Below are positions 50-6,249 of a DNA stretch of 6,249 nt, in pieces; position 1 is the stretch's first letter; every line of letters begins with the position of its first letter. The DNA is from Escherichia coli (lineage in GTDB: Bacteria > Pseudomonadota > Gammaproteobacteria > Enterobacterales > Enterobacteriaceae): assembly GCF_003334785.1 (NCBI RefSeq), contig NZ_QOWV01000039.1. One strand, written 5' to 3'. The notes below the pieces were generated by a model, which was not told the DNA's origin, did not search any database, and saw only the letters and a program-made list of their open reading frames with translations. A program made the position numbers and the translations under genes.

Positions 50-379
50 TCACCAATAAATAAGCGTCAATACGGTGCTCCGTTGACGCTTACAGAGAAT
101 GCGTTTGACCGCCTCGCTATATACTTCCGAGCGTTCTCTTTTCCCAACAGAAATCACGAAAACGACAACTTTCTCGTCTATAACCTGGTATACAAGGCGA
201 TAGCCTGAAGACCGGAGCTTAATCTTGTAACAATCAGGCATACCACGGAGCTTGTTTGCTTCAATCCGGGGTGACTCAAGTACTTCAACCAGCTTCTTTT
301 TCAACTGTTCACGTACCGTCGAGCCCAGCTTTCGCCATTCCTTTAGTGCCCGCTCGTCAAAATCCAGAAAATACGCCAT
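50..379 (-). CDS. relE: RelE mRNA-interferase toxin (RelE/ParE family), 109 aa; first 95 aa match E. coli RelE as recalled, followed by a 14-aa C-terminal extension
   Basis: Translation MAYFLDFDERALKEWRKLGSTV...VYSEAVKRIL is recognisably RelE; start codon shares one base with the relB stop (TGATG); the gene sits directly downstream of relB on the same strand. Confidence 0.9.
   Translation of the reverse strand: MAYFLDFDERALKEWRKLGSTVREQLKKKLVEVLESPRIEANKLRGMPDCYKIKLRSSGYRLVYQVIDEKVVVFVISVGKRERSEVYSEAVKRILCKRQRSTVLTLIYW
53..91 (-). terminator. Stem-loop (9-bp stem 62-70/83-91, inner CGG/CCG pairs) followed on the minus strand by UAUUUAUU; probable terminator or mRNA fold at the relE 3' end
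   Basis: Inverted repeat AAGCGTCAA...TTGACGCTT read directly; U-rich tract follows on the minus strand. The extended relE ORF reads through it. Confidence 0.4.
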
Positions 380-618
380 CAGAGTTCATCCAGCGTCACA
401 CGTACTGGCTTAGGATTACGAAGCCGTTCTTTCACTATCTCCACAAGTTCAGCATCTTCATCACTCAGGAGTGTCTGTTTGAACGGCAAGCGTTCATTGT
501 CAGCGATATACTCGAGCATGAGACGAAGCGCTTCAGAAGGAGTTACACCCATTTTTTCAAGCGCGGCGTAAGAACGCGCTTTAAGTTCATCGTCAATACG
601 CAGGTTAATGCTACCCAT
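379..618 (-). CDS. relB: RelB antitoxin, 79 aa
   Basis: Translation MGSINLRIDDELKARSYA...PKPVRVTLDEL matches RelB as recalled; GAGGTG Shine-Dalgarno about 6 nt upstream of the ATG; overlaps the relE start. Confidence 0.92.
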   Translation of the reverse strand: MGSINLRIDDELKARSYAALEKMGVTPSEALRLMLEYIADNERLPFKQTLLSDEDAELVEIVKERLRNPKPVRVTLDEL

Positions 619-700
619 GTCTTACACCTCTTGTAATTACAAATGTCATTACAAGTATCGCACTACAACATGCTTAGGGCAAGTCACGAAGGAAGTCAGA
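619..700 (-). promoter_or_regulatory. relBE promoter region with relO-type operator (perfect 12-bp palindrome TTGTAATTACAA at 631-642, plus partial repeat to 655)
   Basis: Palindrome read directly, immediately upstream of relB; consistent with RelB/RelE autoregulation at an operator overlapping the promoter. Exact -35/-10 positions not resolved by eye. Confidence 0.6.
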
Positions 701-948
701 AAGTAGTCGTAAGAACGGTGATCACTGTCCGCTTTGTGCCAGGAGCAGCCATTGCTAAGTCCATCCTGTATTGTGCAGGTCAGCTCGTTTTTAAAGAGTC
801 CGGCCATCATCTTACTGGTACAGACACCATATACTTTGTGACGGTCAGGCTACATATGCACAACTCAACTTATTCATCTATTTTTTGCTTTAGCATGTCA
901 GTGTTGCTTTCTCGTCGGCGGGTGAGCGGTGACCTGACCTGTCGATAA
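643..948 (+). CDS. ydfV: Hypothetical protein, 101 aa, in the position and of the size of E. coli ydfV (divergent from relB)
   Basis: ORF of the expected length between relB and flxA; no recognisable Shine-Dalgarno; the start lies inside the relO operator. Protein sequence not independently recognised. Confidence 0.35.
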   Translation: MSLQVSHYNMLRASHEGSQKVVVRTVITVRFVPGAAIAKSILYCAGQLVFKESGHHLTGTDTIYFVTVRLHMHNSTYSSIFCFSMSVLLSRRRVSGDLTCR

Positions 949-1100
949 AGGAACGTAACACGTTTTATGCAACACCCGCATGCGGCAGAAAATTATTGCC
1001 GAACGTTTACCCCTGTCAACAAGCTTTACTTTCTGAGGCGCGCCAGCCCGCGAGGAAAACAATCTGAACATCAAACAATTAATGACACAAGAAATACGAT

Positions 1101-1127
1101 TAAAGATTTTTTTGTGCATGCCGATAG
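1101..1127 (+). promoter_or_regulatory. sigma28 (FliA)-type promoter: TAAAGATT, 11-bp spacer, GCCGATAG
   Basis: Matches the sigma28 consensus TAAAGTTT-N11-GCCGATAA at 7/8 and 7/8 with the exact spacer, about 24 bp upstream of the flxA start; flxA is a known FliA-dependent gene. Confidence 0.6.
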
Positions 1128-1150
1128 TGCTTTTTTAAAAGGAGAAATCT

Positions 1151-1483
1151 ATGTCTGTCACAATTCAGGGAAATACCTCAACCGTTATTTCAAACAACTC
1201 CGCCCCGGAAGGAACATCAGAAATAGCCAAAATCACAAGACAAATTCAGGTGCTGACTGAAAAGCTTGGGAAAATCTCATCGGAAGAGGGGATGACGACA
1301 CAGCAGAAAAAAGAAATGGCTGCATTGGTACAGAAGCAAATTGAAAGCCTCTGGGCTCAACTGGAGCAGTTGTTAAGGCAGCAGGCAGAGAAAAAGAATG
1401 AAGACGCGACAGTTCAGCCTGATAAAAAAGAAGAGAAAAAAGACGATACAAATACCGCTGGCACCATTGATATTTACGTCTAA
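1151..1483 (+). CDS. flxA: FlxA-like protein (FliA-regulated), 110 aa
   Basis: AAGGAG Shine-Dalgarno about 6 nt upstream of the ATG; translation MSVTIQGNTSTVISNNSAPEG... with a Q/E/K-rich coiled-coil-like centre; gene order relB-ydfV-flxA as in the Qin prophage. Confidence 0.85.
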   Translation: MSVTIQGNTSTVISNNSAPEGTSEIAKITRQIQVLTEKLGKISSEEGMTTQQKKEMAALVQKQIESLWAQLEQLLRQQAEKKNEDATVQPDKKEEKKDDTNTAGTIDIYV

Positions 1484-1497
1484 GTGACAGCCGTATT

Positions 1498-1522
1498 GTG
1501 GCCCTCATCGGGCCACTTTTCG
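1498..1522 (+). terminator. Rho-independent terminator downstream of flxA
   Basis: GTGGCCC-tcatc-GGGCCAC hairpin followed by TTTTC, 15 bp after the flxA stop. Confidence 0.6.
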
Positions 1523-1570
1523 CCATCAGCCTTTTCTTTAAAGACATATTATCTTTGTATCATTTCTGAT

Positions 1571-3419
1571 AGTTAACATTACAAGATATAAGTAATGGAC
1601 GCACTCCCAATTAGTCTATTTAAATCGCCACGAGTTTAACTGACAACCCATGATCAATTATGAATTGCAACTATTTCTGTAGTCACTTTTGTGGGGACAG
1701 TCCACAAAACTGCCAACTTCCGCTTCTTGCTCTTAGCGGACATTAGCATAGGCTATTTACCATAACGCCTCATTACGCGCACCGCCCAGACTGACTCAGC
1801 GCGTTTCTGGCATATCCCCGGTAAAACAAGTAACAAACCACCCGAAAATGAACACCAGAAACGCGACTTAAGAATCTACCCTATGAATGGATATGCACTC
1901 AACCGAATCGATCTTGGTTTCAATCTTTTTTATCGGGATCAGGCTTCTTTTTAGGTAACTTCGGGGGCTTAACTTGCTGATGACTTTGCGTTCGGCGCGT
2001 AAGCCAGGGATGGTCAGCTTTAGGTTTAACATAGTATTTTGAGCGTAAATCAATACGGGCATTATCCACTCGTTCATGGACACTCTTTTCATCATCCAGT
2101 GGTATAGGCTCCGGGCCATCAACATACTTTTCCCAGCCCAGCGCTTTCCCGTCATACAGAACGTTAATTTCACCGTCAAAGTTCTCGCATACAGTAACAA
2201 CCGAATGCCTAAGTCGATATCCCCGGCCCTCACTGCGTACCTGAAACGCACTGCTTTTGTACTGGAAAGTGAGATTTTTAGACAGAACGCGCTTCGCCTG
2301 TAGGCTGAAGATATAACCCAGTTCCTCTTCAGAATGGTGCACATCAAGATGAGCATTATCAGTAGTACGAGGCGACGTAGCGAACCGGTTGTTATAGGCT
2401 TCAATAAAGGTCGGCAACCATGCATTTGCTGTTTCAATATCACTGATATTCTGAAGCCGCATTTCTTTGACCAGCCTGTCCTGTAGTGTCTGATTGGCGC
2501 GCTCTACCCGCCCTTTTGCCTGCGGGCTGTTGGCATGGATTGGCTCGATGCCCAGTGTCTTTATCGCACGAGTGAACTGGGTCAGCTCACCTTCCCGCTC
2601 TGGGTTATTTACCCTGAATATACTGTGTCTATCAGAGTAGAGAGCGAGCGGTACGCCATGATCATTAAGGTAACCCCGGAGGGTTTCCATGTAAGCCCGG
2701 GTTGTTTCAGCAGGCACAAAACGCAACGCCATCAACGCACTGGTGGCATCATCAATGAAAACGATCAGTGTACATCTGGGGCCTCGATTTTCAAACCAGT
2801 CATGAGGTGAGCCATCAATCTGGATCAGTTCACCGTAAGATGGTCGTCGCATGCGGCGTTGATATATACGGGCAATTTTACGACGGCGTTCACGCCATAA
2901 CCCCTCTTCTATCATCCACTTTCTGAGAGTTTCAACGGATAAAGATAAACCGTGTATCTCGCGCAATTTTTCGCACGCAAACGTAGGTCCAAAATCAGCG
3001 TAACGGCCTTTGAGGAGTGAAATTACTGTTGCTCTGAATTCAGTAGAAAAGGAATTATTAGGACGCTTTCCACGTCGGTGGGAAACCAGACCAGAAGGCC
3101 CTTCATTTCTATACCGTTGCACCAGACGTTTAACCTGCCGAATAGAAATGCCAATGCGTGCCGCAGCTTGTTCCTGAATAATCTGAAGTCGGTGGAGTTC
3201 CTTATGACTCATCGTAACAGTCTCTTTGATCATGAAAAATCCCCCAGAGAATTGTCTGGGGACATTTTAGAATGGTTCAAAGGGGACATTACAGCTTGGT
3301 GTTAACAATAGCCTGCTTCTCCGTGCCTTTCGGCACGTAAGAGGCTAACCTACATGTGTCTAGCATGAAATTGGCCTCAGATTAATGTTAAGCGTCTTGC
3401 AGGACGCGTAATGTTAACT
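1571..3419 (-). mobile_element. ISNCY-family (IS1202-group-like) insertion sequence; boundaries tentative
   Basis: Boundaries are placed at a perfect 12-bp inverted repeat (AGTTAACATTAC at 1571-1582; GTAATGTTAACT at 3408-3419) bracketing the transposase gene. No target-site duplication was found and a 12-mer match could arise by chance in 6 kb. Confidence 0.35.
1920..3233 (-). CDS. ISNCY-family DDE transposase (IS481/IS1202-like), 437 aa
   Basis: N-terminal helix-turn-helix (AARIGISIRQVKRLVQRY); integrase-type catalytic core with D in IQIDGS, D in FIDDATS and E in SPQAKGRVERANQTL; lysine/proline-rich C-terminal tail. An alternative ATG at 3212 (MSHKEL...) is in frame. Confidence 0.9.
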   Translation of the reverse strand: MIKETVTMSHKELHRLQIIQEQAAARIGISIRQVKRLVQRYRNEGPSGLVSHRRGKRPNNSFSTEFRATVISLLKGRYADFGPTFACEKLREIHGLSLSVETLRKWMIEEGLWRERRRKIARIYQRRMRRPSYGELIQIDGSPHDWFENRGPRCTLIVFIDDATSALMALRFVPAETTRAYMETLRGYLNDHGVPLALYSDRHSIFRVNNPEREGELTQFTRAIKTLGIEPIHANSPQAKGRVERANQTLQDRLVKEMRLQNISDIETANAWLPTFIEAYNNRFATSPRTTDNAHLDVHHSEEELGYIFSLQAKRVLSKNLTFQYKSSAFQVRSEGRGYRLRHSVVTVCENFDGEINVLYDGKALGWEKYVDGPEPIPLDDEKSVHERVDNARIDLRSKYYVKPKADHPWLTRRTQSHQQVKPPKLPKKKPDPDKKD

Positions 3420-3567
3420 GGGGCTTTTCTCTATCTGCCGTTGGTGTCCATGCCCGAGGCAGATAGCCTCAAGCACCCGCAGTCATTCTACTTAACTAAG
3501 ATTTCCCCGCAAACCGTTTTTGTCCAGCACAGTAAATATCCAACTAAACCAATGGAGTTCGCTGTAT

Positions 3568-3747
3568 TTACCGCCAGTATTCAATGCACATGACCGCCAT
3601 GAACACCCCTAAAAAAAGGGCATTTATATATCCAAATATTAATATCAAAACATCAACTTTTTCCATATACCTTGCTGTGAAGATGATGGGCATACATGAT
3701 GCGAACAACCAGAACGCAACAAACAAAAACTGCAATGCGTTTTTCAT
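3568..3747 (-). CDS. Small hydrophobic membrane protein, 59 aa, two predicted transmembrane helices
   Basis: Consensus AGGAGG Shine-Dalgarno 5 nt upstream of the ATG at 3747; translation MKNALQFLFVAFWLFASCMPIIFTARYMEKVDVLILIFGYINALFLGVFMAVMCIEYWR. The ORF-track version (start 3786) has no ribosome-binding site. Confidence 0.45.
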   Translation of the reverse strand: MKNALQFLFVAFWLFASCMPIIFTARYMEKVDVLILIFGYINALFLGVFMAVMCIEYWR

Positions 3748-4001
3748 TATTCCTCCTACAATCAATGTGCAATTACATTTAAACACACCTCAATTTGGCC
3801 GGACATATAAATATCTAAACCAGAAAAAATCACTTACATAGCGTTACAAACTCTTTAGTCTAAAGGTTCATCGTAAAACATTCCCCATACTTATCAGTCC
3901 GTTCCGCGCCAGGTAGCTCATTGCCTTATCTGGCAACCTGTAATCAGGTTTCCGCTTTTTCAGTTGGCTGGTCGTTTAACCGACATAGTTAATCCATTAA
4001 T

Positions 4002-4289
4002 CTAGTTGCCGGATGTTGGTGGATTTTCGCGTTTTAGTTGTTCATAAAAGTGCACAGCTTTAACCAGTTCTTCTGATGTAACTGGGACTGGTGAGGCAGT
4101 GAATAAGGCCTGAATTTGATAGTTCGGCCTGTCGTTACAATCCTCTTTTTTCGGTACATATTTCCAGTCACCAGACCACTACTTCCCCTGAAAGTCCGTA
4201 ACGCCTTTTTTCACGTAGCGATATCGCCATGCCACTGGTTTTGCTTGCCCCGCCGTTTCATGCCCTTCCTGATAATTAATCTCGCTCAT
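4002..4289 (-). pseudogene. Small prophage-like ORF (about 95 codons) interrupted by an in-frame amber codon at 4179-4181
   Basis: Reads MSEINYQEGHETAGQAKPVAWRYRYVKKGVTDFQGK-TAG-WSGDWKYVPKKEDCNDRPNYQIQ...; its ATG overlaps the TGA of the upstream ORF (ATGA). Confidence 0.25.
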
Positions 4290-4477
4290 TCATCGCCCCA
4301 CTCATCACAATATGCTTCGACCGGAGTTTTTCCCGCTTCATAGTCATCACGCTAGGATTCGACATCAGCAGCACTTCCACCGCGTAACTCACCATAGTCC
4401 ATTAATAGTTCATCCCGCTCTTCAAAACTGATGTTATATTTAGCTGAACAAAAATCAGCCACTTTGTTCTTCCTCAT
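4286..4477 (-). pseudogene. Small acidic ORF (about 63 codons) interrupted by an in-frame amber codon at 4352-4354
   Basis: Reads MRKNKVADFCSAKYNISFEERDELLMDYGELRGGSAADVES-TAG-RDDYEAGKTPVEAYCDEWGDE; an internal GTG at codon 6 is preceded by GAGGAAG; stop overlaps the next start. Confidence 0.2.
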
Positions 4478-4899
4478 CGTCTTTTATTTCGTGGTATGAG
4501 TAATTGCAGTAGTTAAAGAAAATTTCTTATGCTCCGTCATGAATTTCCTCAGGTGTTGCGTCATCGTCCACTTCGAATACATCCTCAAAATCTCCACCAG
4601 CTATTCCCGTTTCAATAATAATTTTGAACTTTCGCATTTCACTACCGCCCTTTCGGGCGGCCTCCTGATGTTCTGAGGGTGCAGAAATCCATCCGGTTAA
4701 GGATTAAATTTTATTTACAGAACTGAATTTAATTATTCAGATATACGTATCTGTAGCCTTACGAATCTACTCACTGGATGCCTCTTTCATAAAAATAATC
4801 CAGTGGGTTTTATCGTTTTTTCCCTGTTCGTTGACAGATAACAGGTTTTCTGTCTGTCAGTGCCAGAATCTGGCTTACCGGTATTTGCGTTTCATTCCA

Positions 4900-5256
4900 T
4901 TAAAAAATCAGAACGCCGTGCGGCCTCAACACCCGAAAGGCTTCTTTAAATCTCTGTCGCGAATCATCACGCCAGGCATCTTTATTCAGCCGTCCATATT
5001 TCTTTCCCATCCAGGCGTTATCACCAACACTCTCAAGATGCGGAGGGTCTAATACAACCATCGAAAAAGATGCGTCTGCAAATGATAATGCACGAAAATC
5101 TGCGATAATGTCAGGGCTGATAATCAAGCGTCTCCCATTGCGTAATGTGTATCCTTCTTTTCTGATATCGCTGAATATCGCCCGTTCGTCAGACTTATCG
5201 AACCAGAACATGCGGCTGCCACAGCACATATCAAGAATGGTTGCCGGTGCACTCAC
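4900..5256 (-). CDS. Putative SAM-dependent methyltransferase (motif I ILDMCCGS; motif IV VVLDPPH), 118 aa; probably cut short by a premature TAA
   Basis: GTG start overlapping the stop of the upstream ORF; motif I and a DPPH motif about 55 residues apart, as in small N6-adenine/N4-cytosine-type methyltransferases; after the TAA at 4900-4902 the same frame stays open 29 codons (WNETQIPVSQILALTDRKPVICQRTGKKR). Confidence 0.6.
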   Translation of the reverse strand: MSAPATILDMCCGSRMFWFDKSDERAIFSDIRKEGYTLRNGRRLIISPDIIADFRALSFADASFSMVVLDPPHLESVGDNAWMGKKYGRLNKDAWRDDSRQRFKEAFRVLRPHGVLIF

Positions 5257-5519
5257 TGCGCCACGTCCTGAAAATTACCCTGATAGAAAGCCAGTATGCG
5301 CTGCATAACTTCGCTCTTCCGGCACTCGCGACAGATTATGTTTAGGCGACTGTCGTAGCGACGTATTTCTCCGTCAGGTGATGACCAGATAAGGTCCGGA
5401 TCAACCACAGCAGGTTTCTTCACCTTTGCCCTCGAGAGTTTTTTGCGGGCGTTTTGCCAGTCCTTACGCGCCTGTTCAGAGGGGAATAACCCGTATCCGG
5501 AGCTTAAGTTGCACGCCAT
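5253..5519 (-). CDS. Hypothetical basic protein, 88 aa (contains CRECRK), coupled to the methyltransferase gene
   Basis: Stop overlaps the methyltransferase GTG start (GTGA); no clear Shine-Dalgarno; its 5' end overlaps the longest version of the opposite-strand ORF. Confidence 0.3.
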   Translation of the reverse strand: MACNLSSGYGLFPSEQARKDWQNARKKLSRAKVKKPAVVDPDLIWSSPDGEIRRYDSRLNIICRECRKSEVMQRILAFYQGNFQDVAQ

Positions 5520-5892
5520 TGGGTGGGTTAAGCATAAATGTATTCCTGGTGCTAAATGGCCCGAAATTCAGGCAGAGATGCGCATCTGGAAAAAACGTCG
5601 CGAAGGTGAACGCAAGGAAACCGGAAAATACACGTCTGTTGTTGATCTCGCCCGCGCCAGAGCCAATCAACAGTACACTGAAAATTCAACAGGAAAAATC
5701 AGCCCGGTCATTGCTGCCATTCATCGCGAATACAAGCAGACATGGAAAACACTGGATGACGAACTGGCCTACGCTCTCTGGCCTAGTGATGTGGATGCCG
5801 GAAACATTGACGGCAGCATCCATCGCTGGGCAAAAAAAGAAGTTATCGACAACGACCGCGAAGACTGGAAGCGTGAGGTGTACTGGCAATAG
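5443..5892 (+). CDS. Hypothetical protein of unknown function (149 aa from TTG 5443; alternative starts TTG 5509 with a GGAG site, or ATG 5578)
   Basis: Long open frame with mixed charged composition (…KISPVIAAIHREYKQTWKTLDDELAYALWPSDVDAGNIDGSIHRWAKKEVIDNDREDWKREVYWQ); the 3' end abuts or lies within the IS3-family terminus. Confidence 0.45.
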   Translation: MRAFCQSLRACSEGNNPYPELKLHAIGWVKHKCIPGAKWPEIQAEMRIWKKRREGERKETGKYTSVVDLARARANQQYTENSTGKISPVIAAIHREYKQTWKTLDDELAYALWPSDVDAGNIDGSIHRWAKKEVIDNDREDWKREVYWQ

Positions 5893-6249
5893 CGGACACT
5901 ACCATTTGTTCTTTTTTTAAGCAGCCATCTGATGATATTTTTCCCTGAAGGCTGCCGGGGAGATATTCCCCAGACGAGAGTGACGACGCTGACGATTGTA
6001 GAAAATCTCAATGTATTCCCGTATTACTGAGATGGCTTCATCCCGGTTATTAAAACGATAGTGGCTCAGGCTCTCATTTTTCAGCGTTCCCCAGAAGCTT
6101 TCCATCGGAGCGTTGTCGTAACAGTTACCTTTACGCGACATTGATGTTTTCAGACCAAACTGCTCCTGTATGACCCGGTAATCGTATGCGCAGTACTGTG
6201 AACCTCGATCGGAGTGGTGGATTAGCACGGCAGGTGGGCGCTGGCTCCT
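5874..6249 (-). mobile_element. IS3-family insertion sequence, partial (continues beyond window); terminus near 5874-5900
   Basis: Transposase OrfB C-terminus ends at 5917; the adjacent GGCAATAGCGGACAC (5885-5899) resembles the IS3 terminal repeat as recalled (GCAATAGTGGACAC). Exact terminal base uncertain by about 10 bp. Confidence 0.6.
5917..6249 (-). CDS. IS3-family transposase OrfB (integrase core), C-terminal part; 5' end lies outside the window
   Basis: Translation ...VLIHHSDRGSQYCAYDYR...MSRKGNCYDNAPMESFWGTLKNE...YNRQRRHSRLGNISPAAF carries the IS3-family DDE-region signatures (HSDRGSQY; KGNCYDNAPMESF); the frame stays open to the window edge. Confidence 0.9.
   Translation of the reverse strand, partial: RSQRPPAVLIHHSDRGSQYCAYDYRVIQEQFGLKTSMSRKGNCYDNAPMESFWGTLKNESLSHYRFNNRDEAISVIREYIEIFYNRQRRHSRLGNISPAAFREKYHQMAA

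Follow-up and report, generated by a model that had tools for sequence, protein, structure and literature searches.

The Qin prophage of Escherichia coli K-12 carries the pseudogene ydfE, which lies downstream of dicB-ydfD and upstream of xis/int beside rspB and is cut by an IS2 element (insD-7). One study describes it as being transcribed together with dicB-ydfD from promoters upstream of dicB (bioRxiv 10.1101/2024.09.21.614188), and the literature gives ydfE no more than a brief mention as a pseudogene sharing a transcript with these two genes. An intact version of the gene, annotated as an exonuclease, is found in strain LSN03-016011/A (L002), where it spans 2472 bp, encodes a protein of 823 aa (WP_000048341.1) and is preceded by dicC-dicA-ydfABC-dicB-ydfD and followed by xis and int. 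In this intact protein, Pfam recognises domains at residues 642-813 only, namely an Rv2179c-like 3'-5' exoribonuclease domain (E=6e-66) and a weak RNase_T match, and its PDB sequence matches are restricted to the C-terminal domain.

Here, we analysed a stretch of 6,249 nucleotides of E. coli DNA (the window), in which a plus-strand ORF at 5443..5892 starts with TTG, comprises 149 codons and ends with ...DREDWKREVYWQ-TAG (Table 1). This locus belongs to the Qin prophage, which occupies its usual place in the chromosome. With high confidence, the ORF can be described as a non-functional internal remnant of the exonuclease gene of a Qin-type lambdoid prophage in decay, with a deletion on one side and an IS600 insertion on the other.

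Table 1. Positions of the exonuclease remnant, its two junctions and the adjoining features in the window
Feature	Position	Strand	Remarks
Three-part chimeric ORF	5443..5892	+	17 antisense DUF977-gene codons + 127 native exonuclease codons + 5 IS600 codons + stop
Internal fragment of the exonuclease gene, native codons 164-290	5493..5874	+	DNA 100% identical to the intact L002 gene (3001-3382)
Deletion junction, imperfect microhomology GTATCCGGAG	5493..5502	.	DUF977 parent GTAGCCGGAG, exonuclease parent GTATCCGGAG; crossover within GTA 5493-5495
DUF977 / Ren-like gene remnant	5253..5502	-	PHROG 142; N-terminal ~56 of 140 codons gone
Divergent 88-aa ORF	5253..5519	-	C-terminal ~82 codons of a 140-aa DUF977/Ren-like exclusion protein + antisense exonuclease DNA
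GCG, left copy of the IS600 3-bp target-site duplication	5871..5873	.	Right copy in the related locus L001 at 9109-9111, beyond the window
IS600 right end, running off the window	5874..6249	-	Terminal inverted repeat begins TGAGGTGTACTGGCAATAGCGGACACT at 5874
IS600-derived codons GAG GTG TAC TGG CAA (E V Y W Q) + stop TAG	5875..5892	+	Match to IS600
orfB transposase, C-terminal 110 codons	5917..6249 (codons 5920-6249)	-	NF033516 transpos_IS3, profile positions 271-369 of 369, E=1e-39; score under the full-length cut-off solely owing to the incomplete gene in the window

By alignment, window positions 5493-5874 are identical to nt 489-870 of the intact exonuclease gene, and residues 18-144 of the ORF equal residues 164-290 of WP_000048341.1 (127/127 identical). 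A megablast search with 5253-5878 as query against 5,426 complete E. coli genomes returned thousands of matches, in which the similarity to intact genes annotated as 'exonuclease' or '3'-5' exonuclease' was confined to 5493-5874. The ORF also matches the PHROG 2082 profile 'exonuclease' (E=4.6e-94, profile positions 156-290 of 823); an NCBIfam search with the ORF gave no match. Two statements of a preliminary description of this DNA have to be revised here. The ORF had been listed as being of unknown function, and its product had been viewed as a 149-aa protein with an exchanged tail. It derives from the Qin-type prophage exonuclease and is a pseudogene fragment, in which the 5' end is truncated as well and only native residues 164-290 are left.

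Compared with the intact protein, residues 1-163 and 291-823 are missing, the whole catalytic domain included: the ORF stops at native residue 290, and the absent Rv2179c-like/DEDD 3'-5' exonuclease domain is located at 642-813. A Pfam search of the full-length protein found no domain within residues 164-290, and no recognised domain is present in the fragment because the only Pfam domains and PDB matches of the intact protein fall at its C-terminal end. The native start and the upstream dicB-ydfD operon context are also missing at the ORF in the window, where the similarity to intact loci starts at 5493 (native nt 489). The ORF is a piece of a member of the Qin-type prophage exonuclease family (PHROG 2082, homologue of K-12 ydfE) and not itself a functional member.

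At the 3' end, the identity to the intact gene ends after 5874, with ...GGAAGCGT/GAGGTGTACTGG in the window versus ...GGAAGCGT/ATCTCGG in the intact gene. A 91-nt junction probe (5835-5925) was matched by intact exonuclease genes up to probe position 40 and by unrelated IS600 copies from position 40 (5874) onwards; copies beside kgtP, helicase genes, plasmid genes and others matched from probe position 39-40 (window 5873-5874). Since the exonuclease similarity stops there, unrelated IS600 copies start there, and the repeats and the target duplication in strain FORC 064 (L001) fit, the outer end of the element is placed at 5874 (TGAGGTGTACTGG...). The T at this position is shared by target and element: it is the first base of IS600 and by chance also the one that the native codon CGT (Arg290) would have here. 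IS600 has TG...CA ends, and its inverted repeats agree at 19 of the first 27 positions (TGAGGTGTACTGGCAATAGCGGACACT versus TGAGGTAGCCTGAGTTTAACGGACACT, the latter being the reverse complement of the far end in L001, which finishes ...CCTCA). In the PGAP annotation, the transposase appears as 'IS3-like element IS600 family'.

These data largely bear out what had been said about this end. The ORF stop was expected inside an IS terminal repeat or within a few bp of it, and TAG 5890-5892 indeed lies 17-19 nt within IS600; the IS terminus is located upstream of this stop and not downstream of 5892. The motif GGCAATAGCGGACAC at 5885-5899 had been read as resembling the end of IS3. It does belong to the terminal inverted repeat, of which it forms IS positions 12-26, but the element is IS600, a member of the IS3 family, and its end is found 11 bp further to the left. 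IS3 proper was ruled out as the element by annotation and termini, and an IS end at 5885 was rejected in favour of 5874 on the basis of the intact-gene alignment and the unrelated IS600 copies.

As the window ends inside IS600, the second IS600 end, the second GCG and the distal gene part were read in the near-identical relatives L001 and L005. The sequence of strain FORC 064 is identical to window positions 93-6249 except for two bases inside the IS (6211 and 6227). In this strain, the exonuclease gene resumes exactly at the point of interruption 2487 bp past the junction (...GGCTACCTCA/GCG/TATCTCGG...), and the distal part following the IS is annotated at 9107..10714 as a pseudogene missing the N-terminus. 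The distal 533 exonuclease codons follow the IS in both relatives. The occupied site GGAAGCG/TGAGG...CCTCA/GCG/TATCTC in L001 contrasts with the empty site GGAAGCG/TATCTC, which is present (GGAAGCGTATCTC) in L002 and many other genomes. The junction is a precisely defined IS insertion and not a chance pattern, and it is common to 43 complete E. coli genomes.

Instead of a simple insertion, an IS-mediated deletion or a recombination between two IS600 copies could have made the junction in the window, in which case the distal exonuclease part would be absent and not displaced. The window stops inside IS600, and the IS66-family junction at its left end sets it apart from each of the 5,426 complete E. 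coli genomes, which marks a further rearranged lineage. However, the exonuclease-IS600 junction is base for base the one in L001 and L005, where the distal gene part and the 3-bp duplication are in place, and this makes such a rearrangement an unlikely origin of the junction.

Several further observations were made beyond the right end of the window. At L001 6622-9108, IS600 is itself interrupted by an intact IS30, and the same is seen in L005; the IS600/IS30 composite of 2487 bp corresponds to 1264 + 1221 + 2, if we assume the usual lengths of the elements. Further on in the closest relatives, the Qin integrase region is disrupted by an IS66-family element (ISCro1-like), resulting in nested IS insertions in the prophage.

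At the 5' end, the window upstream of 5493 matches a minus-strand DUF977 gene, which itself precedes a SAM-dependent methyltransferase gene. In a three-way alignment, the DUF977 parent reads ...AACCC GTAGCCGGAG TTGTAT, the exonuclease parent ...GCCAT GTATCCGGAG CTTAAG and the window ...AACCC GTATCCGGAG CTTAAG, with a microhomology of 9/10 bp at the deletion junction. In comparison to the reference locus L004, at least ~2.6 kb were lost (calculated from the alignments), comprising the first ~56 DUF977 codons, the replication gene O, dicB, ydfD and exonuclease codons 1-163.

The deletion also explains the unusual arrangement of reading frames around the junction. In the divergent ORF, the ATG and the first six codons (MACNLS) are supplied by antisense exonuclease DNA, and PGAP treats the stretch as a pseudogene missing the N-terminus. 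Reciprocally, codons 1-17 of the exonuclease ORF in its longest form are antisense DUF977-gene sequence, and the ORF extends over 149 codons because no in-frame stop happens to occur upstream of the deletion junction. The overlap between the longer forms and the 88-aa ORF, pointed out in the preliminary description, is real and arose as a by-product of the junction, since the deletion joined two divergent genes head to head. The ambiguous starts proposed in the same place, TTG 5443, TTG 5509 (6 nt behind a GGAG at 5499-5502) and ATG 5578, all exist in frame, but none of them is the start of the gene: TTG 5443 lies in antisense DUF977 DNA, the other two encode a Leu and a Met inside the exonuclease, and all three are non-native because the deletion removed the native start.

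The deletion junction was detected in 90 complete E. coli genomes and the exonuclease-IS600 junction in 43. A synthetic probe combining the deletion junction with the empty IS600 site gave full-length matches of 100% identity in at least 12 genomes, for example in strain 300709, where the 5'-truncated exonuclease gene reaches its native stop and is followed by xis, int and rspB. As genomes with the deletion and an empty IS600 site exist, the deletion occurred first and IS600 was inserted later; the two lesions bounding the ORF are independent.

Based on these findings, the ORF very probably arose as follows. The parent was a gene of the early left operon, a homologue of the K-12 pseudogene ydfE, whose 823-aa product has a DEDD-type 3'-5' exonuclease domain at its C-terminus. 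Through a deletion between imperfect microhomologies of 10 bp, exonuclease codon 164 came to lie head to head with the DUF977/Ren-like gene, itself truncated, of the rightward operon on the other strand. IS600 then transposed into codon 290/291 with duplication of GCG, and the reading frame continues into its terminal repeat for five codons (EVYWQ) up to the TAG within the repeat. The pseudogene itself is a case of ordinary genome decay, already known and annotated.

With regard to expression, a simple consensus scan of 5200-6000 detected no sigma-70-like promoter, and the native promoter region of the exonuclease gene was part of the deleted segment. PGAP labels the exonuclease stretch as a pseudogene 'missing N-terminus and C-terminus'. 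Among public gene calls, the 149-aa form occurs on 4 contigs, the 127-aa form on 306 and the 104-aa form on 146, under names such as 'exonuclease, partial', 'putative exonuclease' and even unrelated ones, with some fragments being called 'exonuclease VIII'; these calls prove only that the ORF is mechanically callable. Divergence gives no measure of relaxed selection, since the fragment and the intact gene share 100% identity. We infer a lack of expression or of function for the fragment; given the GGAG before TTG 5509 and the public gene calls, read-through transcription may take place, as may some translation.

It is very improbable that a small protein starting at TTG 5509 (127 aa) or at ATG 5578 (104 aa) is expressed with a kept or gained function, for instance as a non-catalytic, partner-binding piece. 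The GGAG 6 nt upstream of TTG 5509 would fit such a product, but in the intact gene the same GGAG and TTG belong to normal internal coding sequence, where they read E-L-K-L. Products of exactly 127 and 104 aa have been called on hundreds of public contigs, as listed above, whereas the deletion has taken away the native start and promoter region, the scan found no promoter-like site and no domain is recognised in residues 164-290. Likewise, the arrangement persists in 43 complete genomes, but descent of a single locus from a common ancestor accounts for this, and the PGAP annotation is that of a pseudogene. Finally, the idea that ...EVYWQ is the native C-terminus and that the IS merely abuts the natural end of the gene is refuted by the intact homologues, which run 533 residues further (...DREDWKR-ISASMRKQ...), and by the EVYWQ codons, which match unrelated IS600 copies. 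The earlier proposal that the IS insertion truncated the gene and supplied the EVYWQ-stop thus holds: uninterrupted homologues do extend past the C-terminus of the ORF, and the codons at 5875-5892 are IS600 sequence.

Elsewhere in the window, positions 1-93 represent the end of an IS66-family element (ISEc47/ISEc23-like; the reverse complement starts GTAAGCGTCAACGG), and other copies of it match 1-93. This end sits in the stop codon of a relE ORF (50..379, minus strand), changing TGA to TGT, and the similarity to relE loci begins at 93. As a result, the RelE ORF is lengthened by 14 IS-derived residues (CKRQRSTVLTLIYW), to 109 aa versus 95. No complete E. coli genome among the 5,426 contains the relE/IS66-family junction. 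A 437-aa ORF at 1920-3233 on the minus strand resembles an ISNCY-family transposase; in relatives, PGAP annotates only a partial ISNCY pseudogene 'missing C-terminus' at the equivalent of ~2190-3212, and IS150 adjoins it in strain 300709. In relatives, PGAP lists two more pseudogenes in the interval from the ISNCY remnant to the methyltransferase gene (L001 4616-5385, window ~3868-4637). A frameshift and an internal stop disrupt the first, which encodes a hypothetical protein, and an internal stop the second, which encodes a DUF7167 family protein; this fits a general decay of the prophage.

The correct label for the ORF is Qin-type prophage exonuclease pseudogene fragment, and not hypothetical protein of 149, 127 or 104 aa as in several public records. 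The locus illustrates how IS terminal repeats can serve as a source of stop codons and how deletion junctions lead to chimeric, overlapping ORFs that mimic divergent genes; past the correct annotation, it has little significance.

In comparison to known systems, the IS600 at this locus shows nothing unusual: the TG...CA ends, the imperfect repeats, the 3-bp duplication and the IS3-family orfB are all present in the window or in the element of the relative. Of the intact exonuclease WP_000048341.1 (PHROG 2082, with the PF16473 Rv2179c-like domain at its C-terminus), the window contains nt 489-870. Residues 246-623 of this intact protein resemble the non-catalytic middle part of RecE, the exonuclease VIII of the Rac prophage (NF007259, positions 271-600 of 877), with a score of 281.6 bits that is far below the cut-off of 1269 bits. 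The Qin-type exonuclease gene is not a RecE equivalog, and the two differ in that RecE has a 5'-3' nuclease fold and the Qin-type enzyme a DEDD 3'-5' domain.

The K-12 pseudogene ydfE is the same gene in the same prophage. It is 100% identical to the fragment over the shared part and is also interrupted by an IS3-family element. In contrast to the fragment in the window, which lacks codons 1-163 and carries IS600 after codon 290, ydfE has kept the native start and codons 1-256. The IS2 cut in K-12 follows ydfE nt 768, equivalent to window 5771/5772 (L003 3279/3280), ~102 bp upstream of the IS600 site. Two independent IS3-family insertions have therefore hit one gene within ~100 bp in different lineages, and their proximity could be due to chance or to a local target preference. 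From the IS2 at codon 256 in K-12, the IS600 at codon 290 and the deletion of the 5' end in the window, one might suspect that the gene is a recurrent target of inactivation and that the intact exonuclease is selected against, or else that the leftover 104-127-aa fragment is translated and acts alone. We consider both ideas far-fetched; neutral decay of a cryptic prophage would likewise give rise to two nearby IS3-family insertions and one deletion.
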